The notes below the pieces were generated by a model that was given only the letters and a program-made list of their open reading frames with translations, was not told where the DNA came from and made no database searches. From an uncultured Gammaproteobacteria bacterium (GTDB lineage Bacteria; Patescibacteriota; Microgenomatia; Levybacterales; UBA12049), in the NCBI GenBank assembly GCA_964372855.1, contig CAYJRY010000001.1, positions 18,794-82,793 on the forward strand: a stretch of DNA of 64,000 bases. Reading direction: 5' to 3'. The position numbers were made by a program, and so were the translations under genes. Of the stretch, positions 2,677 through 33,965 are shown piece by piece (the first letter of the stretch is position 1; each line of letters begins with the position of its first letter).

Positions 2677-2742
2677 AAAATTATTCATTGATACTGTATA
2701 AATGCCAATCGGATAATATACCAACGTCAAAAAAGTGGTTTG

Positions 2743-3942
2743 TTAAGAAGAGGCTTTCTTAAGAAAAGATGTAAATACATCTTTCAGTCTGTCAAGGTTT
2801 TTCTTTTCAAGACCATGGTGACAACCGATTACAAAACCTCTTTCCATAATATCATCTGTGATTGGATATCCTGGGTTATTTGTCCTATGAGGAATCTTGT
2901 TAAAACCTGGTTGTCTTAAAATATTCCCAGTAAATATCGGACGTGTTTGTATATTGTTTTTTTCAAGAAAGGTCATTATTTCTAATCTTGAAAAAGGAGA
3001 GGATTTTCTAATCGTTAATGGAAAAGCGAGCCATTGAGTCCTACTATACTTATTTTGTTCGGGAAGAATAAAAAACTTTTCATACTTTTTAAAGAATTTT
3101 TTGAGTTCTGTGAAGTTTTTTTCTCTGATTTTTCTGAATTCCGGAAGTTTTTTAAGTTGGATATTTCCAAACGCAGAGCACATTTCATTTGGAAGAAAGT
3201 TATAGCCGATTTCGTTAAATATATATTTAGCATCATAAGGTATATTTCCGACTTTTATTTTAAATCGCTTATTAATATCTTCAGATTCATCAAAAATAGA
3301 CGAACTTCTTCCCCATCCTCTTAAAACTTTTGCTCTATCTCTCCATTCTTTTCTATTAATCAAGATCATTCCTCCATTTCCTCCGGCGGTTATTATATGT
3401 GAACCAAAAAAACTTGTTGTTGAGATGTCGGAATATGTTCCTGTCGGTTTTCCATTAACCTGTGCCCCAAGTGTATCGCAAGAGTCTTCGATAAAAATGA
3501 GATTATGTTTTTGAGCAATTTTTTTTAATTTTTCCATGTCGGGAATATTTCCAAGAAGTAGTGGAATCATAAGAACTTTTGTTTTTTTCGTAATGAGTTC
3601 TTCCACTTTATTGACATTTATAACATAGGTTCCGGCCTCTACATCCGCAAAGACAGGAATAAGTCCATGCTGAACAAGCGGCGCAACTGTTGTTGAAAAA
3701 GTCAAAAGAGGAGTAATTACTTCAGAACCCCTGGGAAGATTTAAAAGTTCAATTGCAAGGAAGTTTGCTGATGATCCGGAATTAACCATAACCCCATATT
3801 TTTTGCCAAAAAGTTTAGCGATACCTTTTTCAAAGATTTGAGTTTCAATTCCCATATTGGTTCTATGCTCTTTAAGAACCGCAACCACAGCTTGAATTTC
3901 TTCATCATCATAAACAGAAAGTGCGTATGGGACTCTTTGCAT
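2743..3942 (-). CDS. DegT-fold PMP-dependent sugar 3-dehydratase (ColD / E1-like), not a true aminotransferase
   Basis: 399 aa with a DegT/DnrJ fold (VMVNSGSSANFLAIELL, FIEDSCDTLGA). The position of the PLP lysine reads SFFGSHIITAGGNGG, with His in place of Lys. This is the hallmark of GDP-4-keto-6-deoxymannose 3-dehydratase (ColD) and the CDP-hexulose 3-dehydrase E1. The C-terminal RPIFTGNILRQ is also ColD-like. Confidence 0.65.
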   Translation of the reverse strand: MQRVPYALSVYDDEEIQAVVAVLKEHRTNMGIETQIFEKGIAKLFGKKYGVMVNSGSSANFLAIELLNLPRGSEVITPLLTFSTTVAPLVQHGLIPVFADVEAGTYVINVNKVEELITKKTKVLMIPLLLGNIPDMEKLKKIAQKHNLIFIEDSCDTLGAQVNGKPTGTYSDISTTSFFGSHIITAGGNGGMILINRKEWRDRAKVLRGWGRSSSIFDESEDINKRFKIKVGNIPYDAKYIFNEIGYNFLPNEMCSAFGNIQLKKLPEFRKIREKNFTELKKFFKKYEKFFILPEQNKYSRTQWLAFPLTIRKSSPFSRLEIMTFLEKNNIQTRPIFTGNILRQPGFNKIPHRTNNPGYPITDDIMERGFVIGCHHGLEKKNLDRLKDVFTSFLKKASS

Positions 3943-7119: not shown

Positions 7120-8055
7120 TCATGCCTTAGGGGTCGCTGTCTTTCGTGCTTCTTGAAAGTACGCATAAGTCAGCTTAATCCCTTCCTTTAAAGAGGTTTT
7201 AGGTGACCAACCTGTTACTTTTTTAATTTTTGTTATATCAGCATAAGATTTTAATGGGTCACCTTTTCGTTCACCTAGATCGATAAGTTCAAACTTCTTT
7301 CCTGCTATTTTTTGAAGTATGTATAAAATATCCTTCATTTGCACTTTCTTACCCGAACCAATATTAAAACTATGGATTCCTTCAAGATTTAGAACAGCCT
7401 GATGAGCCTTAGCTACATCCGCAACATATACATAATCTCTTATTTGTTTCCCTTGCCAATACCAGGAAACAGGCTTATTATCCAAAATGGCCTCAATCCA
7501 CATTGGAATTGCTCTAGTACGTGGCTTTTGTTCGTCCCGTGGACCATACACATTAAAAGGACGAAATGTAATGGTTTGAATACCGTATGAATGGTAATAT
7601 GCAGTTAAAACCTGTTCAAAGGCTAATTTTGATGCTGCATAGGCATTTAAAGGAACAGTTGGGTCATCTTCTTTAATAGGTGTCTTTTTTGGCTGCCCAT
7701 AAACAGATGATGTTGAGGAATAGATTATTTTTTTTACTCCTTTTTTTCTCATCACTTCAAGGAGTCTCATTCCATTAAGAACATTATTTTCAAAATATTT
7801 AATTGGCTCTTGGTAGGAAAATTCAATTATACTTGAGGCGGCAAGATGAATAACAACGGAAACATCTTCAAATTCTTTCTCAATAGTATGCACTTTTTCA
7901 AGCGGAATTTTTAAAAGTTTAGCTCGTTTATCAACAAAGCTTTCATATCCAAACCTCAAATCATCTATAACAGTAACAGCATGACTATTGTTACACAAAT
8001 GTTCTACGACATGCGAACCAATAAAACCTGCTCCTCCTGTAACTATTATTTTCAT
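7120..8055 (-). CDS. NAD-dependent sugar epimerase/dehydratase (extended SDR)
   Basis: 311 aa. It has a GGAGFIGSH Rossmann motif and the catalytic region SSTSSVYG...YAASK. Confidence 0.7.
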   Translation of the reverse strand: MKIIVTGGAGFIGSHVVEHLCNNSHAVTVIDDLRFGYESFVDKRAKLLKIPLEKVHTIEKEFEDVSVVIHLAASSIIEFSYQEPIKYFENNVLNGMRLLEVMRKKGVKKIIYSSTSSVYGQPKKTPIKEDDPTVPLNAYAASKLAFEQVLTAYYHSYGIQTITFRPFNVYGPRDEQKPRTRAIPMWIEAILDNKPVSWYWQGKQIRDYVYVADVAKAHQAVLNLEGIHSFNIGSGKKVQMKDILYILQKIAGKKFELIDLGERKGDPLKSYADITKIKKVTGWSPKTSLKEGIKLTYAYFQEARKTATPKA

Positions 8056-8651
8056 TGTTTTTTAACATTTTTAGTATTACGTAAGCCTACAATAAAGTCG
8101 TAATTAATTTTGGAAAATTGAGTTACAACTTGAAAAGTTTTTTTGTTTTTTTCATCTGATTTTTTTTCAAGATCCACAAAAATTTTTTGATGCATAACGG
8201 CCGATTGTGTTATTTTTTTATCCAGCCAGTCTGGAATTTTATTTTGTCTTATTAATGCGTTATTGTAGGCTTGAACAAGCATACTATAATAGTTTTCCCC
8301 TTTTAAGGCAGTTTCTGCAGCTAAATCATTCTTTCCTTTTTCCATTAGTAGTCTACTCGCAATTATCGTCTTATCAGCCATTAGCAAATTAAACTCAATC
8401 TTTTTAACTTGGTCAATGATAATCTTCTCAGCTATTTTGTTTCTTAAGACTTTAAGCTTATAAAGCCTATTATCTGGAAGCAATCCTACTGAAGATTGAA
8501 TATAGTCAACCGTATTCATTTTTAGGATTGCATTTTTCGCAGTACTTATAACACTAAACATAACAAATAATAAGAAACACATAATCCACAGTACCCAAGC
8601 TATTCTTAAAATTCCACTTCCATTAAAATAATTGGTAAAAAGATTATTCAT
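8052..8651 (-). CDS. Hypothetical membrane-anchored protein; possibly a distant relative of the secreted proteins at 32127 and 38610
   Basis: 199 aa. There is an N-terminal hydrophobic segment and then a hydrophilic region with no recognisable catalytic motif. It shows weak pattern similarity (LP..LY..K...EKI ... YY) to the two secreted paralogs. Confidence 0.3.
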   Translation of the reverse strand: MNNLFTNYFNGSGILRIAWVLWIMCFLLFVMFSVISTAKNAILKMNTVDYIQSSVGLLPDNRLYKLKVLRNKIAEKIIIDQVKKIEFNLLMADKTIIASRLLMEKGKNDLAAETALKGENYYSMLVQAYNNALIRQNKIPDWLDKKITQSAVMHQKIFVDLEKKSDEKNKKTFQVVTQFSKINYDFIVGLRNTKNVKKQ

Positions 8652-9027
8652 CGATCAATATTGCTTTTGCTATTTTTTTTATTTCTCTTTTTGCTTTCAA
8701 GTCTAAATATATTGCCAGTTTGTTAATTTTATTGATGTATGGCTTTGAAAGTCTATTAATATTACTGATATATAATTTGGATAATTTGTTAACCTTGTCA
8801 CTAATAACAAATCCTATGGCATAAGGAGCATTAAAGGTAAATGTTTTTATAGATAAAAGATTTAACTTAACCTTTGAAAATTTTTTCCTACTTTTTTTAA
8901 TTGGTAATTGACTAATTGTTGCAACAAAAAAAATAAATAAAAATGTAATTAGAAAAAAAAGGCTAGAAAAAAAATAATTGGGATGATAGATAAGAAAATT
9001 ATCGTATAAGGAGATGATTTCTTTCAT
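8644..9027 (-). CDS. Small membrane protein with an internal tandem peptide repeat
   Basis: 127 aa. It has a TM segment and then repeated NKLSKLYISNINRLSKPYINKINKLAIY units. Confidence 0.25.
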   Translation of the reverse strand: MKEIISLYDNFLIYHPNYFFSSLFFLITFLFIFFVATISQLPIKKSRKKFSKVKLNLLSIKTFTFNAPYAIGFVISDKVNKLSKLYISNINRLSKPYINKINKLAIYLDLKAKREIKKIAKAILIDE

Positions 9028-9041: not shown

Positions 9042-9710
9042 CTACCGTATGGTGAAAGGTACAGCTTTATTTTCGTTAACACTATGAGGACTTTCATCGT
9101 AAATGTTTTTAATTTTTGCGATCCAAGCAGCAATCATGTGATTAAGCACCAATTGTATATCCTCGATAGGACCATAATGATTGCTGTTGATAATAATTGA
9201 ATGGTTAACTAAACCCCCTAATTTTCCTCCAGTTTTAAAACCTAAAATCCCAATAGTTATTGCACCACATTCTTTCGCATATTCTATCGCTTTTACTACA
9301 TTTGGGCTATTGCCGCTTCCAGATAGAGCAATAACAATATCATCTGTTTCAACTAAATTACGAAGCTGTTGTACAAAAATGTCATCAAAACTTAGGTCGT
9401 TTGCAAAAGCAGTCATAATAGCAACATTATCGGTTAGGGAAATAACACGAAATCGTCTTTCTGTATTATCGTAAATTCGCTGCAATGTACCTTTTCCTAA
9501 GTCGCAGGCCATATGTGAAGCTGTGGATGCTGATCCACCATTTCCAATAATAAAAACTTTCCTGTCTTTTTTATATGCTGCGACTAATAAATCTATAATT
9601 ATTTCAATTTTGGTCGTATCGAGCGAGTCCAAGCATTTTTTAAGCTCCATAAGATACTCATTGATAAAATTTTTAGGATCTGGCATTTTGTGTATTATCT
9701 TTGTTTTCAC
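9042..9710 (-). CDS. gmhA: Sedoheptulose-7-phosphate isomerase (SIS domain), GmhA
   Basis: 222 aa. It carries VFIIGNGGSASTASHMACDL and ALSGSGNSPNV SIS motifs and has the typical GmhA length. Confidence 0.75.
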   Translation of the reverse strand: MKTKIIHKMPDPKNFINEYLMELKKCLDSLDTTKIEIIIDLLVAAYKKDRKVFIIGNGGSASTASHMACDLGKGTLQRIYDNTERRFRVISLTDNVAIMTAFANDLSFDDIFVQQLRNLVETDDIVIALSGSGNSPNVVKAIEYAKECGAITIGILGFKTGGKLGGLVNHSIIINSNHYGPIEDIQLVLNHMIAAWIAKIKNIYDESPHSVNENKAVPFTIR

Positions 9711-9711
9711 C

Positions 9712-10692
9712 TTAATCTATAAAAATAATTTTACTCCCTTGTTGTTCAAATAAAAGTTCTTGATAAACAAGTTCTGGAAGAGAATTAATAATTTTTGCAT
9801 GCTTTTCCTCAGGCGCATAAAAGAGCAAAAATCCTCCACCTCCTGCGCCTAAAAGTTTTCCTCCAATTGCTCCATTTTTTCGAGCAATTGTATACCATTT
9901 ATCTATTGTTGAATTAGATATTCCTTCCGCCATTTGCATTTTCAATAACCAATTTTCATGCAGCATCTCACCAAACGAATCAAGGTTGTTTTTATTAAGT
10001 GCTTTTTGCATTTCCTTAGTGATTCCTACCATTCTACTCATTAATTTACGTTTCTTTTTCTGGGAAGCCAAATTTCTTGTCTGTTTTGCCAAAATCGGAT
10101 TTGCAGATCTTGTAATACCAGTATAAAAGAGGAGTAATCTCTTCTCTAAAATTCTTTTTGTTTCTATTTTACATATAATAGGGTCCACATATACAGTCTC
10201 ATTTGGATTAAATTGCATATACTGAAAACCCCCATAAGCAGCTGCATACTGATCTTGTTTGCCAATAGGCTTATTTAATATATCTATTTCAATTTTACAT
10301 GCTTCTTTTGCCAACTTCTCAGCATTTACATGTTTACCTTGAAATGCATAAAGTGCATTCAAAAGACCCACAACATAAGAACTTGAAGATCCCATTCCCG
10401 TACCTTCGGATGGAATATCCGCAATTGAAGTAATGTGAATTCCTCCTTTTATCCCGGTTAGCTTTAGTGCTTCTCTTACAAGATTATTTTCAATATCTGA
10501 TACTCTACGAACAATTTCTGTTTTTGAATAATTAATGATAATTCTGCCATCAAATTGATTATTAACTGCTATGTAGACATATTTATTAATCGCTGTCGCA
10601 ACAACAGCACCAATATGCTTTTTATAAAAACTCGCAATATCACTCCCACCTCCCACAAAACTAATTCGAAGCGGTGTTCGCGAAATTATCAT
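9712..10692 (-). CDS. hddA: D-glycero-alpha-D-manno-heptose 7-phosphate kinase (GHMP kinase), HddA
   Basis: 326 aa. It has RTPLRISFVGGGSD at the N-terminus, GMGSSSS, and GKQDQYAAAYGGFQYMQF, which is near-identical to the HddA-type GHMP heptose kinase motif. GAGGGGF is also present. Confidence 0.8.
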   Translation of the reverse strand: MIISRTPLRISFVGGGSDIASFYKKHIGAVVATAINKYVYIAVNNQFDGRIIINYSKTEIVRRVSDIENNLVREALKLTGIKGGIHITSIADIPSEGTGMGSSSSYVVGLLNALYAFQGKHVNAEKLAKEACKIEIDILNKPIGKQDQYAAAYGGFQYMQFNPNETVYVDPIICKIETKRILEKRLLLFYTGITRSANPILAKQTRNLASQKKKRKLMSRMVGITKEMQKALNKNNLDSFGEMLHENWLLKMQMAEGISNSTIDKWYTIARKNGAIGGKLLGAGGGGFLLFYAPEEKHAKIINSLPELVYQELLFEQQGSKIIFID

Positions 10693-11867
10693 AAATACCT
10701 ACACGCTATATCATAAAGGCTTTTATTTATTGTGACCAAAAATGTCTTACAACCAGCACTTTTACCTGCTATCATATCACGCTCGTCATCTCCAATGCAA
10801 TAACTATTAAATAAATTTATATGATGCTTTGCTGCGGCTAAAAAAAATAAACCAGGATTTGGCTTTCGGCAAAAACAGCCTTCATCCCATCCGTGTCTAC
10901 AGATAAAAATATCTGCTATTTCACCACCATTTTTTTTAATTTCATTAAGCATATTAGTATGAATATTTCTCAACTCATCTTCCTGTAGCATTTTTCTTGC
11001 TATACCTGGTTGATTTGTAATAATAAAAACCATATATCCTTTTACCTTTAAGAGTTTTAATGCTTCTTTTGCTTTTGGTAAAAAATGAAATTCTTCCCAT
11101 TTTCTAACATATTGTGCTTTTGGTGGTTTTTCATTGATTGTTCCATCGCGGTCAAGAAAGATAATTTTTTTCTTTTTAAAAAATTCTTCAATGACTGGTA
11201 TCCTTTCTAAATTACTCAAGCTATAATACTTGTGATATGTTAAAAATCCAGCTAGTTGTTTTTGGGAAATAAGCTTAGGCAATACAGTAGTTTCAAACGA
11301 GCAATTCTCTTGGAGCAAAAAATCTATGACACTTTTTTTCAAAATAAAAAATCCTATATCCACACCATTGAGATTTTTTGCTTCTCTTTTTTTATCGTAT
11401 ACTTCAACAAGCCCTTCTGAATTTACGTATATATTATTTTTCGTGTAATTATCTAAATTACGATAAACGGTTATAAGACCAAGCGTACGTTTTTCTTTAT
11501 AAAATGATTCTAGATCGTTAAGCCTAAGCGGCCAATAATTATCTCCATATAAGAGAAGAAAATGCTTAGCAAAAAGTCGTGATGCATTTCTCAGGCGAGT
11601 TCCGGTATCTGCCTCTACCGGGTCATACGAATATGTAATTTTTAAACCAAACTTTTCCCCTTTACCGAAATATTCTTCAATCTGTTCATGCAGATATCCA
11701 ACTAAAATAATGACTTCCTCAATTCCATTTTTTTTCAAAAGCTCGAGAAGATATGCTAGAAAAGGCTTGCCATGAATTGGAATCATAGGCTTAGGCATAG
11801 TATTTGTTAGAGGCCTCATTCGAGTACCCAGACCGCCAGCTAAAATAACTGCTTGCTTAATTGTCAT
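10689..11867 (-). CDS. Bifunctional fusion of heptose-1-phosphate nucleotidyltransferase (HddC-like) and D,D-heptose 1,7-bisphosphate phosphatase (GmhB-like, HAD)
   Basis: 392 aa. The N-terminus AVILAGGLGTRMRPLTNTMPKPMIPI is an NTP-transferase. The C-terminal ~170 aa IIFLDRDGTIN...ITNQPGIARK...GDDERDMIAGKSAG is a GmhB-type HAD phosphatase. Confidence 0.75.
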   Translation of the reverse strand: MTIKQAVILAGGLGTRMRPLTNTMPKPMIPIHGKPFLAYLLELLKKNGIEEVIILVGYLHEQIEEYFGKGEKFGLKITYSYDPVEADTGTRLRNASRLFAKHFLLLYGDNYWPLRLNDLESFYKEKRTLGLITVYRNLDNYTKNNIYVNSEGLVEVYDKKREAKNLNGVDIGFFILKKSVIDFLLQENCSFETTVLPKLISQKQLAGFLTYHKYYSLSNLERIPVIEEFFKKKKIIFLDRDGTINEKPPKAQYVRKWEEFHFLPKAKEALKLLKVKGYMVFIITNQPGIARKMLQEDELRNIHTNMLNEIKKNGGEIADIFICRHGWDEGCFCRKPNPGLFFLAAAKHHINLFNSYCIGDDERDMIAGKSAGCKTFLVTINKSLYDIACRYL

Positions 11868-11873: not shown

Positions 11874-13103
11874 TTAAAGAACCTTAGGATTATTTGGTAA
11901 AGGCAAAATGAACGTACCTTTGTATTTATATTTATCATTAAGAGTTTTCATAATCTCATTTTTAAAATTCCACGCCAAGATTACAACAAGATGTGGATTT
12001 CTTTTCATTACTTTATCTGGGCTTTCGATTGGAATATGAGTACCAGCTGTAAATAATCCTTGCTTTAAAGGATTCTGGTCAGCAATTACTCTAATATATT
12101 TTGTATTTATACCACAATAATTAAGAAGCGTTGAACTTCTGGCTGAGGCGCCATAACCAACAATAACTTTATTTTTATTTTCATACAAAATTGCAAGTAA
12201 CTTTTCTTTGTGCATTTTAACTCTTTTTGTAAAATTCTCCCAAGCATTGAAAGTATTTAACATAATCTTTTTTTCAGCTTTTCTGTATTCTTCAACTATT
12301 GATGTTTCTTTAAGCTTTGTTTTTCTAATATAAATTACTAAGGATCCTCCACTTATCGGGCTTGTTGTAATATCTTCGATAAAAAGACCGTATCTATGTA
12401 ATAACTCTTCTAAACTCTTAATAGTAAAGTAACATAAATGTTCATGATAGATAGAGTCGTAATGAAGCTCTTGGTATATCTTTTTTGCGTAATGTATCTC
12501 AATTACCAACATGCCATCATTTGCAAGTACCATATGCATTCCTTTAATAAAACTATGAGTATCTTCCACATGAGGAAGCACGTTTCTTGCAAATATTACT
12601 CTTGCAGGTCCCATATCCTTTAGTATTCTTCTTGCAGATGATACGCCAAAAAATTCGCACCTTGTTGGTACACCAGCAGCGATTGCTTTTTCTACAATAT
12701 TTTTTGCTGGGTCAACTCCTAACACTGTATAACCGTTTTTTATAAAGGGAAGAAGAAATGTTCCATCGTTACTTGCTACCTCCAAAATATAACCTTTTTT
12801 ATTGTTTTTTAATCGATATATTATCTCTTTATAAAATACTTTGGCATGAATTCTTGCCGTGCTTGAGGTGCCTGTAACCCAGACATAATTTGAAAATAGA
12901 TCCTTGGGATTTGGAGTATGGTTTAGTTGTACCAAACTACAATTTTCACAATAGCTTAATGACAAAGGATAAAAATTCTCTTTATCGTTTGGACTTTTTA
13001 AGAGGGAATTTGCGTATGGCTGATGACCTAAGTCCAAAAACTCCTTAATCTTTCTAGTTTTACAAATACGGCATGAGTCAATTCTTTTCATTAACAAAAT
13101 CAA
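11874..13103 (-). CDS. NDP-sugar C-methyltransferase-family protein (Zn-ribbon + SAM MTase + C-methyltransferase C-domain architecture)
   Basis: 409 aa. The N-terminal CRIC...(36 aa)...CENC four-Cys putative zinc-binding domain is followed by an LGHQPYANSLL motif. It has a central MTase (ILEVASNDGTFLLPF) and a long C-terminal domain. This is the architecture of the TylC3/NovU-type sugar C-methyltransferases. Confidence 0.6.
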   Translation of the reverse strand: MILLMKRIDSCRICKTRKIKEFLDLGHQPYANSLLKSPNDKENFYPLSLSYCENCSLVQLNHTPNPKDLFSNYVWVTGTSSTARIHAKVFYKEIIYRLKNNKKGYILEVASNDGTFLLPFIKNGYTVLGVDPAKNIVEKAIAAGVPTRCEFFGVSSARRILKDMGPARVIFARNVLPHVEDTHSFIKGMHMVLANDGMLVIEIHYAKKIYQELHYDSIYHEHLCYFTIKSLEELLHRYGLFIEDITTSPISGGSLVIYIRKTKLKETSIVEEYRKAEKKIMLNTFNAWENFTKRVKMHKEKLLAILYENKNKVIVGYGASARSSTLLNYCGINTKYIRVIADQNPLKQGLFTAGTHIPIESPDKVMKRNPHLVVILAWNFKNEIMKTLNDKYKYKGTFILPLPNNPKVL

Positions 13104-13111: not shown

Positions 13112-14083
13112 CTAAGCTTGTTGATTAGCATTTTGAGTAGTAACTTGGTATAAATTTTTATTTTTTTTAAACCAATCTATTGTTTTTGTAAGACCTTCCT
13201 CTATTGTATTTCTTTGTTTCCATTTAAGAACCATTTTCATTTTTGAAACATCTGCTTCCCAACGTGAAGGCTCAATATATCTGGCTTGCTTTGCCACAGT
13301 TCCCCATTGTACATTAGATTTACTTTTTGTAATTTTTTGTATCATTTGTACTATTTCCCCCACTGAGTGTTGCTTACCACTTCCAATGTTGTATATCTCT
13401 CCATATTCATGTTTTAACTCTACAGCATGCAGATATGCATCTATAACGTCATCTATAAAGATAAAATCGCGAACAAAAACTGGGTTAGAAACTCTAATTG
13501 GATTTCCTTCTAAAGCACTTAAAACCACAGATGGAATAAGGCGATTTTTTCCTTCAAAATATCCATAGGGAGTAAATAAGCGGAAATTGATTATGGGTAA
13601 TTTATTTCTTATAGCCTCTTTCTGACAATAGAGAGTAATTACTGATTTTATAACACCATTATTATTTACAGGTTTTAGTAGATCCGTCTCTCGCATAGGC
13701 GTTTCTTTAACTCCATATTCATCTCCGCTACTTGTGTTAATAAATAACTTAAATGGATTTTCCTTAACAGCATCAAGTAGATTTATTGTCCCTTTTAGAT
13801 TAATATCTATCATTTTATATATGTCATCTTCTTCCGGTAAGTTTCCGTATCTGGCTAAATGAAAGATATAGTCTGGTGATATTTTTTTAACTATTGTATG
13901 CAATTTTTTATCTTGAATATCACATTCGTAAATATGTATTTTGTCATAGACATCATGCAATCTCCAATTTAATTTTTTGTCTCTAACAATTACATGTGTC
14001 TTTTGGCCCTGTTTTATTAACTCTCTAATCAAATTAGCTCCAATGAATCCAGTTGCACCAGTAACAAGAAAAGTATTTTTCAT
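13112..14083 (-). CDS. NAD(P)-dependent sugar epimerase/reductase (extended SDR), candidate 4-keto reductase/epimerase
   Basis: 323 aa. It has a GATGFIGANL Rossmann motif. It sits next to the Gmd-like dehydratase. Confidence 0.6.
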   Translation of the reverse strand: MKNTFLVTGATGFIGANLIRELIKQGQKTHVIVRDKKLNWRLHDVYDKIHIYECDIQDKKLHTIVKKISPDYIFHLARYGNLPEEDDIYKMIDINLKGTINLLDAVKENPFKLFINTSSGDEYGVKETPMRETDLLKPVNNNGVIKSVITLYCQKEAIRNKLPIINFRLFTPYGYFEGKNRLIPSVVLSALEGNPIRVSNPVFVRDFIFIDDVIDAYLHAVELKHEYGEIYNIGSGKQHSVGEIVQMIQKITKSKSNVQWGTVAKQARYIEPSRWEADVSKMKMVLKWKQRNTIEEGLTKTIDWFKKNKNLYQVTTQNANQQA

Positions 14084-14085: not shown

Positions 14086-15069
14086 TTAATAAAGGCCTTT
14101 TTCAACAAAATTTCGCCAATATACCAAAACATCGTCAATAATATTTTCAAAAGATAGCTTTTGTGTCCAACCAGTTGCTTCGTAAAATTTGCTTGAATCT
14201 CCTATAACAACAGCTTCATTTGTAGCGCGAATAAATTTCTCCATTATCTTATGTTTTATTTTCCCTTTAAATACAGATTTCTTAATCAGACTTTTTATTG
14301 CATCATCAAATGTACCAATGTTTTCCCTTTTATCAGAACCGACCAAGTAAGCTTCTGGCTTGCAGTGTTCTAAAGCCAACCAATACGCCTCAACTATATC
14401 TTTTACATGGATGAAATTACGTTTTGCCGATACATACCCACTTTGTAAAATTGGTTTTTGTAATCCTTTTTCGATTCGAGCAATCTGGTAAGCATACCAT
14501 GGAAGACCGAATATGTAATCTCGTCTTGGTCCTTCTATATTAAAAGCCCGCGTACGAACAACATGAAGACCATATGTTTTGTGATAGACATAACCAATAT
14601 AATCTTGTGCTATTTTTGACACTGCATACGGATTTAAAGGATTAAGTGGGGTCTCTTCTTTCATGGGTAAATATTCTTTGGGAATATCACCATACATTGC
14701 TACACTACTTGCAATAAGTATTTTTGCAGTTTTATTTGCAATTCTTACTGCTTCCAAAAGGTTGAGAGTTCCTTTATAATTTACATCCATATAGTGACTT
14801 GGGTGAGTCCATGATGGACCAAGTCCACTTTCTGCAGCAAAGTGAAAAATTTTTGTCGGTTTTATTTTTTCAATAATACTTCCTATTCCTATTGGATCTG
14901 TTAAATCGCAATCAAGGAATTCTATCTTAGAAAGTATATGTGCAACATTTCGAAGCCTGGATAAATTCCATCGTTTTAATCCATACACCTTAACACCTTT
15001 ACTCAAAACATAATCGGCCATGTGAGAGCCAACAAAACCGGTAATACCTGTGATGAGAACTTTTTCCAT
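14086..15069 (-). CDS. GDP-mannose 4,6-dehydratase family (Gmd/DmhA-like) NDP-sugar 4,6-dehydratase
   Basis: 327 aa. It has VLITGITGFVGSH and RAFNIEGPRRDYIFGLPWYAYQIARIEKGLQ...SAKRNFIHVKDIVEAYWLALEH. This closely follows the Gmd signature FNHESPRRG...[25 protein letters not shown]. Confidence 0.7.
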   Translation of the reverse strand: MEKVLITGITGFVGSHMADYVLSKGVKVYGLKRWNLSRLRNVAHILSKIEFLDCDLTDPIGIGSIIEKIKPTKIFHFAAESGLGPSWTHPSHYMDVNYKGTLNLLEAVRIANKTAKILIASSVAMYGDIPKEYLPMKEETPLNPLNPYAVSKIAQDYIGYVYHKTYGLHVVRTRAFNIEGPRRDYIFGLPWYAYQIARIEKGLQKPILQSGYVSAKRNFIHVKDIVEAYWLALEHCKPEAYLVGSDKRENIGTFDDAIKSLIKKSVFKGKIKHKIMEKFIRATNEAVVIGDSSKFYEATGWTQKLSFENIIDDVLVYWRNFVEKGLY

Positions 15070-15179
15070 ACTTTCTATTCTACATTTTATGAGAAATGTT
15101 AATTCTCTATACGTGAATAATAATTCATATCAAGTAATTCAATTTAAAACAGACTATTGGTATTTACGGATCGATCAGT

Positions 15180-15881
15180 TTATACCTTTATGATAAGGCA
15201 CTGTGATCCTGATAGTTCAACAATCGTTTCTGGTTTGTCTTTAAAAAATTCATCAAATGCCTTGCTTACACCTCCTATTGTCATATAATCATGAGAGAGA
15301 ATTATTCCTCCTTTACTCATTCGGGGATAAAAGAACTTAAGAGAGTCAAGTGTACTTTTGTATAAATCAACATCCAGATGTACAAATGAGAATCGTTTAT
15401 TTTCAATAGGGGCAGCTGTTTGAGGAAATATTCCTTTATAGAAATAGACCCTTTTTTCGCTCTTCAAATATACTTTTACTTCTTCAAATAAGAGATTAAA
15501 TCTACCTTTGTAGAATTCGGGATCATCATACTCTGTTGTATCTGGTAATCCATCAAAGGTGTCAAATAAATAGAGATTTTTCTTCCCTTTAAATTGGGAT
15601 ATAATTTTTGCGGTTCCTCCTTTAAATACGCCCACTTCTGCAACATCCCCAGGAATTTTTTGAGTATTTTTAACAAGCATTGCTATTGAATACGCTTCAT
15701 TATACGTAACCCAAGTTTCCCGTTCTTTTTTAATTCTTGTAATCAGATCAAACGTTGATATACTTTTTTTGTTATTATATCTTATGAGTACAAAACGTTT
15801 TGAAACAAGAGTGTTCGCGACGCTTTCAAAAAAAATGTCTCGAAAAAAACTAAGAATGTGAGATAGTCCTTTTTCTTCCAT
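15180..15881 (-). CDS. TylF/MycF-family (macrocin O-methyltransferase-like) SAM-dependent sugar O-methyltransferase
   Basis: 233 aa. It has VAEVGVFKGGTA, LFDTFDGLP and VHLDVDLYKST...GGIILSHDY, the characteristic TylF-family motifs. Confidence 0.65.
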   Translation of the reverse strand: MEEKGLSHILSFFRDIFFESVANTLVSKRFVLIRYNNKKSISTFDLITRIKKERETWVTYNEAYSIAMLVKNTQKIPGDVAEVGVFKGGTAKIISQFKGKKNLYLFDTFDGLPDTTEYDDPEFYKGRFNLLFEEVKVYLKSEKRVYFYKGIFPQTAAPIENKRFSFVHLDVDLYKSTLDSLKFFYPRMSKGGIILSHDYMTIGGVSKAFDEFFKDKPETIVELSGSQCLIIKV

Positions 15882-15888: not shown

Positions 15889-16869
15889 TTATTCTATCTT
15901 ATTCTTTCCAAATAAGAAAGATTCTATAGTCCAAAAAGTTTCGTAATAAAGAAGAAAAACATTTAAAAAGGGTAAAATAATTATTCTAGGATCTTGTAGT
16001 GAAGATTTAGTAATAAACATTTTTCTTGTATACAAAAATGAATACATAATAAGCAATAGTAAACCAACAGTATGCAAGTACGGTATAAAAGGAAAAATTG
16101 ATATAACAGGTCTTACCAATAAAAAAAGGCCATCTTTAAGGAGTGACACACCTCTCATCCGAATGCATCTTCCATTAGTCCTCGAATCCATTCTTTGTTT
16201 ATCAAGTAATTTACGTAATGAAAAACCTTTTCCCAAATAATGCAGATGTGTAATTACTGCTTCACTTTTCATTACTTTTCCTATTTTACCAAGGCTTTGG
16301 TGTAAGTCTGCATCGAAGCCTCCAAAACCAAAATTTTTTACATCAATGCCTCCTATCTGTTGATATTTCTTTTTTCTTATGCAATCAAATTTTGTAGTAA
16401 GACCAGCAACTGCACTTCCTACCTGACGAGCGAAATAACATTTTTCCCAGAAACTGTATGTTAGCCAGACACTTTCTAGTAAAACAATTGTTGGATATGC
16501 TGCAATAATATCGTTATTTTCTATAATTGGCCTTGTTAACTTATATAATTCATCTGCCGTTGGCAAAGTACAATCTGAATGCATTAAAACTACAAGCGAT
16601 GATTTTGCAGTTTCCACTCCTAAATTAAAACTTGCGCCAAGACCAAAGTTTTTATTGCGTGAAATAATACGGATGGGTATTTTTGATTTTTTTTCAAAAT
16701 TTCTAACAATTTCTATAGAGTTATCAGAAGATGCATTATCAATAACGATAACTTCTTTTATGGGATAAGTTTGCATATGTATGCTATGCAACGAAAACAA
16801 AACAGTTGTTGCGGCGTTTCTCATTGGGAGTATTATTGTTACTGGTACTTCCCTATTAATTTTAATCAT
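15889..16869 (-). CDS. GT2-family glycosyltransferase with C-terminal transmembrane segments
   Basis: 326 aa. It has VTIILPMRNAATT...VIVIDNASSDNS, with an acidic motif within VLMHSDC. Confidence 0.6.
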   Translation of the reverse strand: MIKINREVPVTIILPMRNAATTVLFSLHSIHMQTYPIKEVIVIDNASSDNSIEIVRNFEKKSKIPIRIISRNKNFGLGASFNLGVETAKSSLVVLMHSDCTLPTADELYKLTRPIIENNDIIAAYPTIVLLESVWLTYSFWEKCYFARQVGSAVAGLTTKFDCIRKKKYQQIGGIDVKNFGFGGFDADLHQSLGKIGKVMKSEAVITHLHYLGKGFSLRKLLDKQRMDSRTNGRCIRMRGVSLLKDGLFLLVRPVISIFPFIPYLHTVGLLLLIMYSFLYTRKMFITKSSLQDPRIIILPFLNVFLLYYETFWTIESFLFGKNKIE

Positions 16870-16870
16870 T

Positions 16871-17977
16871 TTATTCTAGAATACGGAATATCTCCCGATA
16901 GTGAGTTTCGTAATAAAAATAGTCGTTAAATTTTTTTAATCCCGCAAGATACTTTGTATAGTTTTTTTTCATATCTAAAAGTGCTTTCTCAAACTCAATT
17001 TCATCGTTATTTACAAGTATGCCGCAATTAAATCGTTTTAGATATGGGGCTATTGCGGACATATTAGACATAATAATTGGTAAACCTAGCGAAGCATAGG
17101 TTTTAACTTTGCCTGGATCGGTATAATAGGTACCATTTGTTGGCGTAATATCATATAGAGCAACACCTACTTGACATGTTTTAGATTCTTCCTCAAGCTC
17201 TTTGTCAGAAAAAAATCGGTTTGGGAAATAAACTTGATTCTCTATCTTATATTCTTCTATCTTCTTACTATACTTTTTATATGCATCTCCAACACATACT
17301 CCAATTAGTTTAAGTTTGTAATTCTTATGTTTCTTTAAGAAATTAAATAAAAACTCTACGCCTTGAGAGCCTTTCATGACACCTACAAATAAAATCGTAA
17401 GATTTTTAGTATCAAATTTTCTTTTAATATTTCTTGGCTTAACTCCCCACAGTATAGTTTTTCTATAAGGAGTATTTAAGATCTTACCGTTCATTTTTTC
17501 ATTTATTAAATCTCCCGAATAGAAGGCGTATTTTACTTTTTTGTTATAATGTCTCTTAAGAGCTTCAAATAATATAAGTGAAATATTCACGGGGGGGAAA
17601 AAATCTCCATCAAGAAAAAGAAAATCTATATTTCTAATCTTTTTTTGTAAAGACATTCCAAAAAAAGAAATTGGATGCCAAGAAATAACAATTACTTTTT
17701 CGTTTTTAGAGAAATACTTGAGAAGTGAACGTAAATAATTAACATACCACAAAAAATAATGAAGAAAAATGTTTTTTGAAAGTATTATTTTTTCTACTTT
17801 TACTAGTCTTCCATTCTTATAAAGACGTATTGCATTCTTATCATAGTTCTGCCTGTAATCCAAAATGAAAACAACAAGCTTTTCGGTATGCTTTATAAAA
17901 TATTCTTCTGCATCTGTCGTAGCCGTCGACTGGTTACTAGAATACATAAAAATATTTTTATAATACATTTTGTTCAT
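16871..17977 (-). CDS. Probable GT-B fold glycosyltransferase (divergent GT1/GT4-like)
   Basis: 368 aa. The C-terminal half LTILFVGVMKGSQGVEFL...YASLGLPIIMSN resembles a GT-B donor-binding domain. The canonical E...E motif is degenerate. Confidence 0.4.
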   Translation of the reverse strand: MNKMYYKNIFMYSSNQSTATTDAEEYFIKHTEKLVVFILDYRQNYDKNAIRLYKNGRLVKVEKIILSKNIFLHYFLWYVNYLRSLLKYFSKNEKVIVISWHPISFFGMSLQKKIRNIDFLFLDGDFFPPVNISLILFEALKRHYNKKVKYAFYSGDLINEKMNGKILNTPYRKTILWGVKPRNIKRKFDTKNLTILFVGVMKGSQGVEFLFNFLKKHKNYKLKLIGVCVGDAYKKYSKKIEEYKIENQVYFPNRFFSDKELEEESKTCQVGVALYDITPTNGTYYTDPGKVKTYASLGLPIIMSNMSAIAPYLKRFNCGILVNNDEIEFEKALLDMKKNYTKYLAGLKKFNDYFYYETHYREIFRILE

Positions 17978-17986
17978 GTGCTTGAA

Positions 17987-18871
17987 TTACACTTTTCTTG
18001 CTTTCAAAAAGATTCCAACTGTTGATTCTTTTTCTGAGAATTTTCTATTGTTTCGTTTATCTAGCCAGTTGATAATATGCAAGAGAAGCGAAAACAATGT
18101 TTTCTTATCGCCTTTAAATTTGCTTAATGTGGCGCGGATTTTTTGCGGAACATTCTTTGATGTACGAAGACGAAAACCAATATTGGCAATATGATGATTA
18201 AAAGGTAAAGCGAAGTGCGATAGACACTCAAGGCGATCTATAGAAAAGCCGGAATCTTTTATTAATTTACGAAGTTCCGGCACACCGTATAACCTTTCAT
18301 GAAAATTCCATATACCAGCCCAGAAACCAGATTTAACATGCGTTTTAAACAAACGTTGCATAATGTAATTAACAGGATCCCAAAAGAAAGGGTAGTTCCA
18401 ATGGGGAACAGTAACATACATTGTGCCATTCTTGGCAAGTACTCTTTTGATCTCCATCATACCTTTTCTTTCATCCGGTAAATGTTCGAGCACTTCACTA
18501 CAAATTACTTTATTGAATTGACCATTCTTAAAAGGCATTTTATATATATCACCTACTATATAGCGAACACTTTTAGAACCGACTTGCTTTTTGGCATTCG
18601 TAATTGCTTTTTCATCACTATCAATACCAGTTAGATGAAAATCTCCTAATCGTGAAAGAAGGTACAAATAAAATCCATCGCCGCAACCTGCGTCCAAAAT
18701 TTTATCATTTTTTTCAGGATCTAGTTCTCTTATAAGGAGTTTAGCTCGTCTCTTAAGACACATGTCGCCTGTATTTGCAAGAAGTAACTCAAGTTTTTCT
18801 TCATTTACCATATCTGATTCCTTTAATTGAATAATTGTAGCAGAAATCTTAATTTGTGTGTAGCATTGCAT
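17987..18871 (-). CDS. Class I SAM-dependent methyltransferase (paralog group A, second copy)
   Basis: 294 aa. It has ILDAGCGDGFY and VICSEVLEHLPDERKGMMEIKRVLAKNGTMYVTVPHWNYPFFWDPVNYIMQRLF, the same signature as 5185-6009. The true start is probably an internal Met (MVNEEK...). Confidence 0.7.
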   Translation of the reverse strand: MQCYTQIKISATIIQLKESDMVNEEKLELLLANTGDMCLKRRAKLLIRELDPEKNDKILDAGCGDGFYLYLLSRLGDFHLTGIDSDEKAITNAKKQVGSKSVRYIVGDIYKMPFKNGQFNKVICSEVLEHLPDERKGMMEIKRVLAKNGTMYVTVPHWNYPFFWDPVNYIMQRLFKTHVKSGFWAGIWNFHERLYGVPELRKLIKDSGFSIDRLECLSHFALPFNHHIANIGFRLRTSKNVPQKIRATLSKFKGDKKTLFSLLLHIINWLDKRNNRKFSEKESTVGIFLKARKV

Positions 18872-18889
18872 GTGAGTAACCTTTTTTTG

Positions 18890-20020
18890 TTACATATAAC
18901 TATTAATAATAGGTTCTGCGTTTTTTTCGCTAAATTTATTTACGGCGTATTTTCTAGCATTTCGAGAAAATGTTTTTAAAACATTACGATTATGAAAAAA
19001 GAAATTAACAGCTTTTGCAATATCTCGATCTGTAGGCTCTATAATCTTTCCAACAGAATCAGTCACAATCATCGGTAAGGCTCCTCTATTTGAGGCAATC
19101 ACTGGTGTTTTGCAAAATAATGCTCCCGCAGCAACTCTTCCAAAACCCTCCTCATTTAAGGTAGGCACAATCACTATATCAGCAGCGCTATAATGAAGAG
19201 GTAAAAGATTAGGGATAATTGTTCCTTTATAAATAACATTTGGATATTCTTGGACGGCTTTTTTTACGTAATCAACTAGAGGACCCTCTCCATATATAAG
19301 AAAGGTGATTTTTCTATCTAGTAATTTAATGGCACTAATAAACACTTTTATACCTTTTTCTTCAATCAGTCTACCAAAAAAAGAGACAATAAATGTATTG
19401 CTAAGTCCTATTTCTTTTTTTGCTTTTTTTTTATCAACAGGTTTGAAAAAAGTGCTATCTTCCCAATTAGTATAAAGCTGAATTTTATTGGAATTTATTC
19501 CCAGACTCTCTATATCTTGTTTGGACTGATAAGAAATAGCAATAATTTTACTAGCTGATTCAAAAATCCATCTACAAACTTGTCTATATAACCCCCTTTT
19601 TGGAAAATGATACACAGACTGAGCGGAAACTACGTAACGTTTTCTAAAAATTTTTGTCCAGAAACTTGCTGAAAATCCTGCAATTAGACCTTGAGCGTTT
19701 ATCACATTAATTTTCGGATAAACTAGTAACACTAGCGGAGTTACAAAAAAAAGTAAAGGTTCTAAGAATAAAAATTCAAGCATTGGTTTTTTGTATAATT
19801 TATAAAATATTCCTCTTAGAACAGGTAACCGAAAAACAACTACATTTTTACTTTTTTCTATCCACCTACCTAAAACTGGAGTATTAAGGGGCTGATATGT
19901 AAGAACTTTAACTCTCCAATCTTTTTTAATTAACTCATCAATTAAATCTTTCAAGTGGGTTTCTAAACCTCCTATATTTGGCAAAAAGCCTATTGCTATT
20001 ATGAGGATGTGTTTGCTCAT
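18890..20020 (-). CDS. GT4-family (GT-B) glycosyltransferase
   Basis: 376 aa. It has an N-terminal GGLETH and the C-terminal PTLNEEGFGRVAAGALFCKTPVIASNRGALP EX7E-type motif. Confidence 0.7.
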   Translation of the reverse strand: MSKHILIIAIGFLPNIGGLETHLKDLIDELIKKDWRVKVLTYQPLNTPVLGRWIEKSKNVVVFRLPVLRGIFYKLYKKPMLEFLFLEPLLFFVTPLVLLVYPKINVINAQGLIAGFSASFWTKIFRKRYVVSAQSVYHFPKRGLYRQVCRWIFESASKIIAISYQSKQDIESLGINSNKIQLYTNWEDSTFFKPVDKKKAKKEIGLSNTFIVSFFGRLIEEKGIKVFISAIKLLDRKITFLIYGEGPLVDYVKKAVQEYPNVIYKGTIIPNLLPLHYSAADIVIVPTLNEEGFGRVAAGALFCKTPVIASNRGALPMIVTDSVGKIIEPTDRDIAKAVNFFFHNRNVLKTFSRNARKYAVNKFSEKNAEPIINSYM

Positions 20021-20970
20021 ATAAAAAGATGGGAATTTGCTTGATACCAGGCAATAGTTTTTGAAAGGCCACTATCTAAAGTTACTTTTGGATACCATCC
20101 TAATTCTCTTTTTGCTTTTGCAATTGACACATATTGTTTTTTTACTTCATTCAATCTTTCTTCAGGCAACTGCTCCATTTTAACTGTTATTTCTTTTCCC
20201 ATTATTTGAATTATTTTCTGCACTAAATCATAAATTTTAATCTGCTTTCCAGTACCAATATTAAAAATCCTAAGTCTTTTTTTATTTTCTAACTTTTTTT
20301 GGGCAATTATAAGATACGCATTAATAGCATCATCAATATAAAGAAAGTCACGTATTGTACCTATATCCCATATTTCTGGCTTCTTGTCCTGTAAGATACT
20401 CTTGACAATTCTTGGGATTAAACGTGAAAAATTTAGGTCTCCCGGTCCATAAATATTAACAAATCTGGGAATTGCAACTGATAAATTATAGCTATCGGCG
20501 AAAGATTGTGCTAGTAAATCTGCGCAAGCCTTTGAAGTTTCGTATGGTCTTGATGGTTGAGGAAAATATTTTTCTTTGAACGGAACTTTTGGATTATCCC
20601 CATACACATGAGCAGAAGACGCAATAATAACTTTTTGTATTTTATTCTCTCTTGCAGACTCTAATACATTCCATGTACCTTTAATATTTACCTCGAAGGT
20701 TTTAATAGGATTATCTTGACCGACTTCAACTATTGGCTGAGCAGCTAAGTGAAAAACAGTATTGACTTTATATCTTTTCATAATAGCATGCAATCTATCA
20801 AAATCCTCAACCACCCCACTCTCATTTATTACATTAGTTGAAGATTTTAGTTTCTTTTTAGATAAAGTTACTACCCTTGAGTGTTTTGAAATCAATTGAT
20901 TAACAAGATGTGATCCAACAAAACCACTAGCACCTGTTACGAATACTACTCTTTGTTCCCAAAATGACAT
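20017..20970 (-). CDS. NAD-dependent sugar epimerase/dehydratase (extended SDR)
   Basis: 317 aa. It has VVFVTGASGFVGSH and SSAHVYG...YETSKA. Confidence 0.65.
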   Translation of the reverse strand: MSFWEQRVVFVTGASGFVGSHLVNQLISKHSRVVTLSKKKLKSSTNVINESGVVEDFDRLHAIMKRYKVNTVFHLAAQPIVEVGQDNPIKTFEVNIKGTWNVLESARENKIQKVIIASSAHVYGDNPKVPFKEKYFPQPSRPYETSKACADLLAQSFADSYNLSVAIPRFVNIYGPGDLNFSRLIPRIVKSILQDKKPEIWDIGTIRDFLYIDDAINAYLIIAQKKLENKKRLRIFNIGTGKQIKIYDLVQKIIQIMGKEITVKMEQLPEERLNEVKKQYVSIAKAKRELGWYPKVTLDSGLSKTIAWYQANSHLFI

Positions 20971-21096
20971 TTATTTCTCCTTTATTATTTTAGCAGTTTA
21001 TCATTTTTGATATAGCTATTTTTCTTTTACTACGCTCAGAAAACCCAGTATTCTTACCATCATATATTGTCCCACCCAAAAGAAGTTTTTACCTTT

Positions 21097-21945
21097 TTAA
21101 ATAGGCTTTTTGTTTGTATTAATTATCATACCAAGAAATCCACCAAAAACTTCTCCAGATCGTAGTAATATAAGTCCTGCTGTTAAAAGCGGATGTCTCA
21201 ACAATAAATCAAAATGTTTTATATAAGCCGTTTTAATAGGAAAAAACTGGGCAACGGCTATATCTGGATATCGCTTAAGATATTTCTTGAATGCTTGGCT
21301 ATAGTAATACTTTTTTTCAATTCTTCCAAAAAAACTAGTTTTACCCTCATCATGATAAAGATGTTCTTTTATTTTTCTTATCTTGCCAATCTTATTCATT
21401 CTATAATGAAAATCAGAATCCTCAACTCCAACAATTGTTCTATCAAATCCACCAATACGCAAAGCATCTTTTTTTCTAAAAAACCTGCAACATTCGTTCA
21501 TACCATCTTCAAGATATATGCTAACATAGCGCTCAAGTGCTACACATTTAGTCCAAAACCCTGTACCAATAGAAATTTCTGGAATTACCAATGCAATGTT
21601 GTTATGTATTTCTCTATAGCATTCTTCGACAACTTTTGGGGTCAAATACATATCCTGATCTAGAATCAATATGTATTCACCCTTTGCTTCACTAATACCT
21701 CTATTGCGTTGCCTACTTCTTTCAGGTCCATCTACAAAATATCTCGCATACTTTTTGATTATTTTCTCATATTTTTCTTTTTCTGAAAAAATATAGTTAA
21801 TACTATTAACTACTATAATTTCTATGTTTGGGTATGATTGTTTGCATATGGACTGTAAGCATTTCTCGATTGTTCGTTCACAACGATATGTAGCAATAAC
21901 GATAGATATAAGTGGTAAATTACTTGATTTTTTTTTCTGGGTCAT
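21097..21945 (-). CDS. GT2-family glycosyltransferase
   Basis: 282 aa. It has ISIVIATYRCERT...IEIIVVNS and a DQD motif. Confidence 0.6.
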   Translation of the reverse strand: MTQKKKSSNLPLISIVIATYRCERTIEKCLQSICKQSYPNIEIIVVNSINYIFSEKEKYEKIIKKYARYFVDGPERSRQRNRGISEAKGEYILILDQDMYLTPKVVEECYREIHNNIALVIPEISIGTGFWTKCVALERYVSIYLEDGMNECCRFFRKKDALRIGGFDRTIVGVEDSDFHYRMNKIGKIRKIKEHLYHDEGKTSFFGRIEKKYYYSQAFKKYLKRYPDIAVAQFFPIKTAYIKHFDLLLRHPLLTAGLILLRSGEVFGGFLGMIINTNKKPI

Positions 21946-21957
21946 AAAAGTTATCTA

Positions 21958-24087: not shown

Positions 24088-24089
24088 AA

Positions 24090-33640: not shown

Positions 33641-33665
33641 ATAAAAAATTCCCACATAATCGTAT

Positions 33666-33965
33666 CTATACCGATCCCGAATCGTTATAACTATGACACA
33701 ATCCAAAATCTTCATATAAAGATGGCATTATAGATAGTGTTAGAAAAAGTGGTTCAAGATATGGATAATATACTATATCAATATTTTTGGGTAATTTTAC
33801 TCCTCGAGTAATAAAAATGTTCTTATTATTTGGAAAATAATTTAATAGAGAGCTTTTTAAGTTTTCTATGTAAAACCCTGTTCCCCTTACCCTTTGCTGG
33901 ATGTCTGTTGTATTATTTATAGGAGAAATATCCATTGCAATATTCATTTCCTTATTATACAACAA
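33666..33965 (-). pseudogene. Remnant of a GT4 glycosyltransferase with an internal deletion
   Basis: The 99-aa ORF joins an N-terminal segment homologous to 28101-29165 (MNIAMDISP...VRGTGFYIENLK...DIVYYPYLEPLFLTL) directly to the C-terminal MPSLYEDFGL motif. About 250 aa of GT4 core are missing. Confidence 0.55.

Follow-up and report, generated by a model that had tools for sequence, protein, structure and literature searches.

Which sugar is modified by a predicted C-methyltransferase whose gene lies among genes for heptose activation? The question is raised by a 64,000-nt stretch of contig CAYJRY010000001.1 (the window), from an uncultured bacterium that GTDB places in the Patescibacteriota, where positions 11874-13103 encode a nucleoside diphosphate (NDP)-ketosugar C-methyltransferase that we call C-MT. 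A first-pass annotation had assigned the protein to the TylC3/NovU type and proposed that it serves the synthesis of a C-methylated deoxy sugar, perhaps a heptose derivative. Our answer, to which we give a probability of roughly 0.6 from sequence comparison and gene context, is that C-MT C-methylates a guanosine diphosphate (GDP)-4-keto-heptose, with C3 as the probable site. The enzyme belongs to a large, uncharacterized clade found nearly always within a GDP-heptose synthesis module, which probably points to a methyl-branched seven-carbon sugar. The enzyme family is a known one; the heptose substrate would be new.

Counted from a TTG codon with an AGGA 5 nt upstream, the open reading frame (ORF) of C-MT encodes 409 aa. 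An in-frame ATG at 13091 gives an alternative protein of 405 aa (MKRIDSCRIC...). All orthologs begin at this ATG, and an independent gene caller chose it for the identical protein encoded on a metagenome contig (run ERR3478686); the domains are the same from either start. The three-part architecture proposed at first pass was borne out by Pfam searches, which placed Methyltransf_13 (PF08421) at residues 11-70 (E = 7.2e-20; 71.4 bits against a cut-off of 31.3), a class-I methyltransferase domain (PF13489) at residues 90-240 (E = 1.9e-18) and Methyltransf_14 (PF08484) at residues 249-403 (E = 7.5e-48, spanning all 160 positions of the profile), the latter two also above their gathering scores; such agreement lies well beyond chance. 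With PF08421 and PF08484 both found, the N-terminal cysteine cluster is that of the Methyltransf_13 domain and the C-terminal domain is one related to C-methyltransferases. The motifs CRIC...CENC and LGHQPYANSLL, also named in the first-pass annotation, are present in the translation, and in the alignment the Cys pairs of TcaB9 and MtmC have their counterparts in C11, C14, C52 and C55. A comparison with NCBIfam gave no equivalog model for C-MT, just weak UbiG-type matches.

In a PDB sequence search, C-MT matched MtmC (4rv9, E = 9.9e-67), TcaB9 (3ndi, E = 4.2e-57) and KijD1 (5t64, E = 1.3e-54) over its full length. An AlphaFold2 model built with 21 homologs in the alignment (predicted local distance difference score 88.5, predicted template-modeling (TM) score 0.87) was compared with known structures by Foldseek, giving TM scores of 0.95 for MtmC, 0.94 for TcaB9 and 0.93 for KijD1 over approximately 405-410 columns, with the next-ranked fold, a generic methyltransferase, reaching only 0.33. 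The catalytic residues of TcaB9 and their numbering were taken from the titles of PDB mutant entries (Y76F, H181N, Y222F, E224Q and H225N); Y76, H181, Y222, E224 and H225 correspond in the alignment to Y73, H178, Y219, E221 and H222 of C-MT. All five residues and both Cys pairs are conserved among 82 homologs, and the glycine-rich S-adenosylmethionine (SAM) loop S111-N112-D113-G114 is kept in at least 95% of them. Sequence, catalytic residues and predicted fold thus agree with the TylC3-type identity first suggested: C-MT is a full-length NDP-ketosugar C-methyltransferase of the TylC3/TcaB9/KijD1/MtmC type, with predicted activity. For this family, a 4-keto sugar is the only chemically sensible substrate.

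The characterized relatives define both the likeness and the difference. TcaB9 of Micromonospora chalcea, KijD1 of Actinomadura kijaniata and TylC3-type enzymes have in common with C-MT the three domains, the four-Cys zinc site and the Tyr/His/Tyr-x-Glu-His residues, and C-MT is approximately 29% identical to TcaB9 and KijD1, with TM scores of 0.93-0.94 over the full length. However, those enzymes act on dTDP-2,6-dideoxy or 3-amino-4-keto hexoses in actinomycete antibiotic pathways, whereas C-MT stands in a GDP-heptose-type module within a surface-glycan locus and falls in a separate clade. MtmC, from the mithramycin pathway of Streptomyces argillaceus, is the top match of C-MT in sequence (31% identity) and in structure; it is a dual enzyme, 4-ketoreductase with NADPH and 3-C-methyltransferase with SAM, acting on TDP-4-keto-2,6-dideoxy-D-glucose (PMC10269268).

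Upon inspection of the neighborhood, the adjacent genes named at first pass proved real: an NTP-transferase/HAD fusion lies downstream of C-MT, and two genes with the short-chain dehydrogenase/reductase (SDR) fold, SDR1 and SDR2, lie upstream (Table 1). From approximately 24.9 kb down to 5.2 kb, all genes are read from the minus strand, a few bases separating one from the next, and the core is transcribed in the order TylF-like methyltransferase, SDR1, SDR2, C-MT, NTP-transferase/HAD fusion, GHMP kinase, SIS isomerase and two small membrane proteins. Over 7-22 kb, neither promoter-like sites (62, with 70.7±9.6 expected) nor terminator-like sites (11, with 7.7±2.5 expected) exceeded chance, so it is the tight co-directional packing on which an operon structure rests. 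The top NCBIfam matches of the fusion protein were GmhB (NF006506, E = 7.5e-45; 153 bits against a cut-off of 178) and HddC (NF049965, E = 3.4e-33; 115 against 300), that of the kinase was HddA (NF049969, E = 5e-51; 174 bits against 600), and that of the isomerase was gmhA (TIGR00441, E = 2.8e-29; 102 bits against 209). No nucleotidyltransferase other than the HddC-GmhB fusion was found among the scanned ORFs of the window, and the fusion is kept in L007-L014, the related loci, from several phyla, for which the called genes were read.

The association of C-MT with heptose genes extends well beyond the window. Its closest homologs (71-78% identity), in L007, a metagenome-assembled genome (MAG) of Candidatus Parcubacteria, and in L009, stand in the same order as in the window, SDR1-SDR2-CMT-HddC/GmhB-HddA-GmhA. 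In L010-L014 (60-67% C-MT identity) the same genes are reordered as kinase, isomerase, SDR1, HddC/GmhB, C-MT, an RmlC-like gene in some, and SDR2. A metagenome scan with the clade alignment added 80 further C-MT loci at 39-64% identity. For counting linkage we used loci with at least 8 kb of flank and called a locus heptose-positive if it had at least two of the four heptose genes. By this measure, heptose genes lie beside C-MT in 30 of the 36 loci at 42% identity or more (5/5 at 60% or more, 7/9 at 50-60% and 18/22 at 42-50%), and in none of the seven below 42%. The nearest heptose gene was at most 1.6 kb from C-MT in 52 loci, and 220 of 224 matches were on the same strand. In 30 of the 36 loci with 42% identity or more, the gene directly after C-MT encodes an RmlC-like epimerase. 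The idea of a heptose derivative is therefore strongly reinforced by a gene context conserved in dozens of loci.

In a quick neighbor-joining tree, built without support values, the heptose-linked C-MTs form one clade, with MtmC, TcaB9 and the non-heptose homologs outside it. Residues W75, R173, P177, H204, S251, W288 and R322-S323 mark this clade; W75, P177, S251 and R322-S323 flank the catalytic residues, W75 replacing a Tyr that is invariant in 17 outgroup sequences and S251 replacing a His. A single-protein query of GTDB genomes returned only distant relatives (35-39% identity) without heptose genes, which we took as outgroup. The named carriers of the module are all MAGs, from Parcubacteria, WS2, Chloroflexota/Dehalococcoidia, Gemmatimonadota, Acidobacteriota, and Alpha- and Deltaproteobacteria, and no functional name is attached to any of them. 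The earlier view was that such a sugar would be unusual in this lineage. The lineage appears to belong to the candidate phyla radiation (CPR)/Patescibacteria, since MAGs of Levyibacteriota and Parcubacteria are its closest relatives with a name, but the module occurs in MAGs of many phyla and is not lineage-specific. Several loci (L011 at 14561-15841, L024, L025, L026, L029 and L031) have two C-MT paralogs, the tree placing their second copies outside the heptose-linked clade; a clade-type C-MT occurs in L025 and L026 with no heptose genes. L007 additionally contains, at 18178-21105, a second set of GHMP kinase, SIS isomerase, HAD phosphatase and transaldolase (TAL_FSA), absent from the window, which we take to resemble the lincomycin GDP-octose genes LmbP/N/K/R.

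For the source of the 4-keto sugar, the first-pass annotation had pointed to an SDR/Gmd-like pair, and this did not hold as a dehydratase set, since SDR1 lacks the Glu for dehydration and is closer to Rmd, and SDR2 lacks the catalytic Tyr. The top PDB match of SDR1 is the reductase Rmd (2pk3, E = 1.5e-48), ahead of the GDP-heptose 4,6-dehydratase 7us5 (E = 2e-38) and of any Gmd. Its motif SSVAMYG has Ala where Gmd, DdahA-type dehydratase and Rmd have the Glu of S-(S/T)-S-E-x-Y-G; the Ser/Tyr/Lys triad is intact, with PYAVSK as the YxxxK. Of the 21 closest homologs, 70-100% identical to SDR1, 20 have the Glu-less V-(A/S/T)-(M/V) form, so the loss does not reflect decay; EE(Y/F)G is kept in 94 more distant homologs. 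The nearest named homolog, at 87% identity, is from Candidatus Levyibacteriota. The occupant of the SDR1 slot differs among loci: L014 and six others have a homolog of the window protein that retains the Glu, and most related modules have an unrelated "type-A" SDR of 344-347 aa with motifs SSQSMYG and YA(K/R)TK. The type-A protein of L010 has 6vo6 as its top PDB match (E = 1e-36), and we take 6vo6 and 6vo8 to be the GDP-heptose C4-dehydrogenase Cj1427 of Campylobacter jejuni. NCBIfam returned no specific model for the type-A SDR1, SDR2 or SDR3 proteins. We regard SDR1 as a candidate C4 oxidoreductase of GDP-heptose.

Among the six SDR-fold proteins found in the window, none has the canonical 4,6-dehydratase motif. 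The gene at 32642-33715 was rejected as the missing dehydratase, being a plain GalE (8wxk, E = 1.6e-88), as was that at 23065-24087, which is CDP-tyvelose-2-epimerase-like (9rl0, E = 2.5e-99; 1orr, E = 4.3e-95). Those at 20017-20970 (motif ASSAHVYG) and 7120-8055 are generic GalE/RmlB-like SDRs with no acid pair. Because the canonical motif is missing from these SDRs, a 6-deoxy product is doubtful, and of the C-methylated deoxy sugar first proposed, the C-methyl part is plausible and the deoxy part is doubtful. To judge from these motifs, a 4-keto sugar in this lineage is more likely to arise by plain C4 oxidation, with the 6-hydroxyl kept, than by 4,6-dehydration.

SDR2 has Asn at the position of the catalytic Tyr (NNNGVIK) and keeps the Lys and GxxGxxG; its PDB matches are weak and generic, the top one being 6pmh (E = 5.5e-27). 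It belongs to a family present in 30/36 loci at 42% C-MT identity or more, with the consensus G-S/T-C-W-E-Y-G and F-x-x-x-K, in which 35 of 46 sequences have Phe instead of Tyr. The window copy diverges from this family in having SSGDEYG and Asn at the Tyr position, and the copy in L007 has also lost the Lys. Two SDR variants in the locus stand out as unusual: the Gmd/Rmd-like enzyme without the Glu and the SDR family without the Tyr.

Homology and gene context are the basis on which we infer every step of the pathway proposed here, as well as its nucleotide, substrate, regiochemistry and redox chemistry. The GmhA-like protein would convert sedoheptulose-7-phosphate to heptose-7-phosphate, the HddA-like kinase would phosphorylate C1 to give the 1,7-bisphosphate, the GmhB-like half of the fusion would remove the 7-phosphate to leave the 1-phosphate, and the HddC-like half would turn this into GDP-heptose. 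SDR1 would then oxidize C4 of GDP-heptose, probably without 6-deoxygenation because the Glu for dehydration is missing. In C-MT, His222 and the network of Tyr73, His178, Tyr219 and Glu221 would deprotonate C3, alpha to the 4-keto group, and the enolate would attack the methyl group of SAM, as in the TcaB9-type mechanism. C3 is favored because all structurally characterized relatives are C3-methyltransferases, and also because the RmlC-like epimerase stands right after C-MT in most related modules, as in the order of the L-mycarose pathway, where C3-methylation is followed by 5-epimerization and 4-reduction. The 4-keto group might be re-reduced by SDR1 returning its own hydride, which would be redox-neutral, by another SDR of the cluster, or by an MtmC-like activity of C-MT itself. 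The TylF-like enzyme, a homolog of which (50% identity) lies beside the module in L011/L012, may O-methylate the product, and the surrounding glycosyltransferases would transfer GDP-C-methyl-heptose into a surface glycan.

The closest known parallels are the GDP-heptose pathways of C. jejuni and Yersinia (Cj1427/Cj1430/Cj1428; DdahA/B/C; DmhA/DmhB), in which an SDR makes the 4-keto sugar and cupin epimerases and reductases follow (PMC10680097, PMC7949155). In C. jejuni, GDP-4-keto-heptose feeds separate epimerases and reductases both in the pathway of Cj1427, a C4-dehydrogenase with tightly held NADH that is re-oxidized by alpha-ketoglutarate (PMC10680097), and in that of the dehydratase DdahA (PMC7949155). 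The related modules described here follow the same gene logic. By comparison, the C. jejuni enzyme inventory includes no methyltransferase, a word absent from the text that describes it (PMC10680097), whereas the module in the window adds a C-MT following the 4-keto step, joins HddC to GmhB in a single protein, and is accompanied by an SDR2 from a family without the catalytic Tyr. The module would thus extend an enzymology of GDP-heptose tailoring known so far mainly from Campylobacter and Yersinia.

Several points weigh against a GDP-4-keto-heptose substrate methylated at C3. The heptose proteins match HddA, HddC, GmhB and GmhA best, yet all score below the curated NCBIfam cut-offs, so the assignment is at family level only, although the domain types and their joint occurrence are those to be expected; that the nucleotide is GDP is likewise no more than an analogy. 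Formation of the 4-keto group is not secured, with SDR1 nearest to a reductase and without the dehydratase Glu, and SDR2 without the catalytic Tyr. The linkage of C-MT with heptose genes is strong, not absolute: L025 and L026, with C-MTs of 56-57% identity and full flanks, have no heptose genes. Sequence does not separate C3 from C5 regiochemistry, and no C-methyl heptose was found described in the literature searched.

The alternative that survives best keeps GDP-4-keto-heptose as the substrate and moves the methyl group from C3 to C5, as in NovU; we consider it unlikely. C5 is likewise alpha to the 4-keto group, NovU, CloU and CouU have the same Pfam architecture and are C5-methyltransferases, and the clade-specific changes beside the catalytic residues (W75 for Tyr, S251 for His) could reposition the sugar. 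Nevertheless, the three closest solved relatives are all C3-methyltransferases, the catalytic constellation is unchanged in C-MT, and the epimerase that follows C-MT in 30/36 loci mirrors the order of steps in the L-mycarose pathway.

Less likely again is that C-MT methylates a hexose, for example GDP-4-keto-6-deoxy-D-mannose as in a virenose- or evalose-like sugar, and that the heptose genes serve another residue of the same glycan. The characterized members of the enzyme family all act on hexose-derived 4-ketosugars. The virenose of Coxiella burnetii is, in the Coxiella literature, a 3-C-methyl sugar derived from GDP-mannose, for which GDP-linked C3-methylation has been proposed, and it resembles the predicted product here in having a GDP-activated, manno-configured precursor that is C-methylated for a cell-surface glycan. 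Crossover between heptose and hexose also occurs, as DdahA of C. jejuni converts GDP-mannose as well, in low yield (PMC7949155). However, virenose (6-deoxy-3-C-methyl-gulose) is a 6-deoxy hexose made from GDP-mannose by way of a true Gmd, whereas the window has genes for a heptose-type precursor and no functional-looking 4,6-dehydratase; its scanned ORFs gave no Gmd with the catalytic Glu and no second nucleotidyltransferase. In addition, C-MT is interleaved with heptose genes in several gene orders in more than 30 loci, and the nucleotidyltransferase is physically fused to a domain of the heptose-bisphosphate-phosphatase type.

Very unlikely is a module rewired or partly decayed in this lineage, with C-MT mainly an MtmC-like 4-ketoreductase or a user of a keto-sugar that other parts of the genome supply, and with no C-methyl heptose as product: MtmC, the top PDB match of C-MT, is bifunctional and both SDRs depart from the family consensus (the Glu of SDR1 and the family Cys and Phe of SDR2 are lost), but all module genes are intact, the SDR1 change is kept in its closest homologs, the SAM-domain and catalytic residues of C-MT are invariant and the gene order is held in L007 and L009, which together indicate purifying selection on a working pathway.

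If C-MT does methylate a GDP-4-keto-heptose, a new class of monosaccharide is predicted by the module, which is tied to GDP-heptose synthesis and occurs in dozens of metagenomic loci spanning several phyla. To our knowledge, every characterized C-methylated sugar is hexose-derived. Sugars with branched chains are seldom met and strongly antigenic; examples are virenose in Coxiella and, in antibiotics, mycarose and noviose. CPR bacteria live attached to hosts, and their surface glycans are likely to matter for the interaction. A broader and more speculative picture, which we hold doubtful, is that undescribed methyl-branched heptoses, made from GDP-C-methyl-heptose and not 6-deoxy, are widespread on the surfaces of CPR/Patescibacteria, Chloroflexota, Gemmatimonadota, Acidobacteriota and Proteobacteria represented by MAGs. 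They would arise in a compact redox-neutral cycle in which one SDR with tightly held NAD(H) oxidizes C4 in the manner of Cj1427, C-MT methylates the released keto-sugar, a cupin epimerase acts where present, and the same SDR returns the hydride; the Tyr-less SDR2 (Phe-x-x-x-Lys, G-S-C-W-E-Y-G) would have a new, non-redox role. A new principle would follow only if the redox-neutral cycle or the new role of SDR2 were true.

Table 1. Positions of C-MT, its module and other features in the window, with SDR2 relatives in related loci
Feature	Position	Strand	Evidence
NDP-ketosugar C-methyltransferase (C-MT)	11874-13103	minus	Pfam, PDB matches, AlphaFold2/Foldseek, conserved residues
SDR2 (extended-SDR fold)	13112-14083	minus	Pfam Epimerase
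SDR1 (Gmd/Rmd-family SDR, "type B")	14086-15069	minus	PDB matches, motif alignments
HddC-like sugar-1-phosphate nucleotidyltransferase (N half) fused to GmhB-like heptose-1,7-bisphosphate phosphatase (C half)	10689-11867	minus	Pfam NTP_transferase + HAD
HddA-like GHMP kinase (D-glycero-D-manno-heptose-7-phosphate 1-kinase type)	9712-10692	minus	Pfam GHMP_kinases_N + GHMP_kinases_C
GmhA-like SIS-domain sedoheptulose-7-phosphate isomerase	9042-9710	minus	Pfam SIS_2
Two small predicted membrane proteins after GmhA (199 aa, weak DUF5667 match; 127 aa, no match)	8052-9027	minus	
TylF-family methyltransferase, possible sugar O-methylase	15180-15881	minus	Pfam PF05711 TylF, E = 3.8e-23
GT2, GT4, methyltransferase, GT4, generic SDR (20017-20970), GT2, GT4, CDP-tyvelose-2-epimerase-like SDR (23065-24087), GT2	15889-24896	minus	Pfam, PDB searches
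Divergent RmlC-like cupin, candidate 3- and/or 5-epimerase, between two Wzx-like flippase genes	26176-26730	minus	PF00908, E = 8.2e-15
Split transketolase (N and C subunits), possible sedoheptulose-7-phosphate supply	941-2676	plus	Pfam Transketolase_N, Transket_pyr, Transketolase_C
SDR2 family members elsewhere	L011:11585-12475; L013:9800-10708; L014:9795-10691		

The remainder of the window, which has a GC content of 31%, is one large glycan locus with many GT2 and GT4 glycosyltransferases, flippases and GT-C-like membrane proteins; no Rfam family or tRNA turned up anywhere in the window, which therefore offers no lineage marker of that kind. The gene order of the glycan-assembly block upstream of the TylF-like gene recurs in L007 and L009, and the 199-aa membrane protein holds the same position in those two loci only. 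The close homolog of CDP-tyvelose 2-epimerase is among the genes inside the glycosyltransferase block; the window yielded no cytidylyltransferase. The RmlC-like cupin between the flippase genes has no close homolog among the related loci. Homologs of the split transketolase adjoin the module in L013, L014 and L072 only, a weak co-occurrence that carried no weight in our argument. The stretch 29285-63862 encodes over a dozen large membrane proteins in succession; among them are matches to PMT_2, YfhO, PTPS_related or DUF2079 (GT-C-like), and several of 376-661 aa have no Pfam match (for example, 34114-38380, 44206-45714, 52892-54385 and 59069-61054). The ORF at 32127-32687 resembles in style the small membrane proteins that follow the GmhA-like gene. 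At the other end of the window, 180-3942 includes a sugar N-formyltransferase with a C-terminal dimerization domain, the split transketolase and a DegT-type aminotransferase, which suggests that the locus also makes an N-formylated amino sugar.

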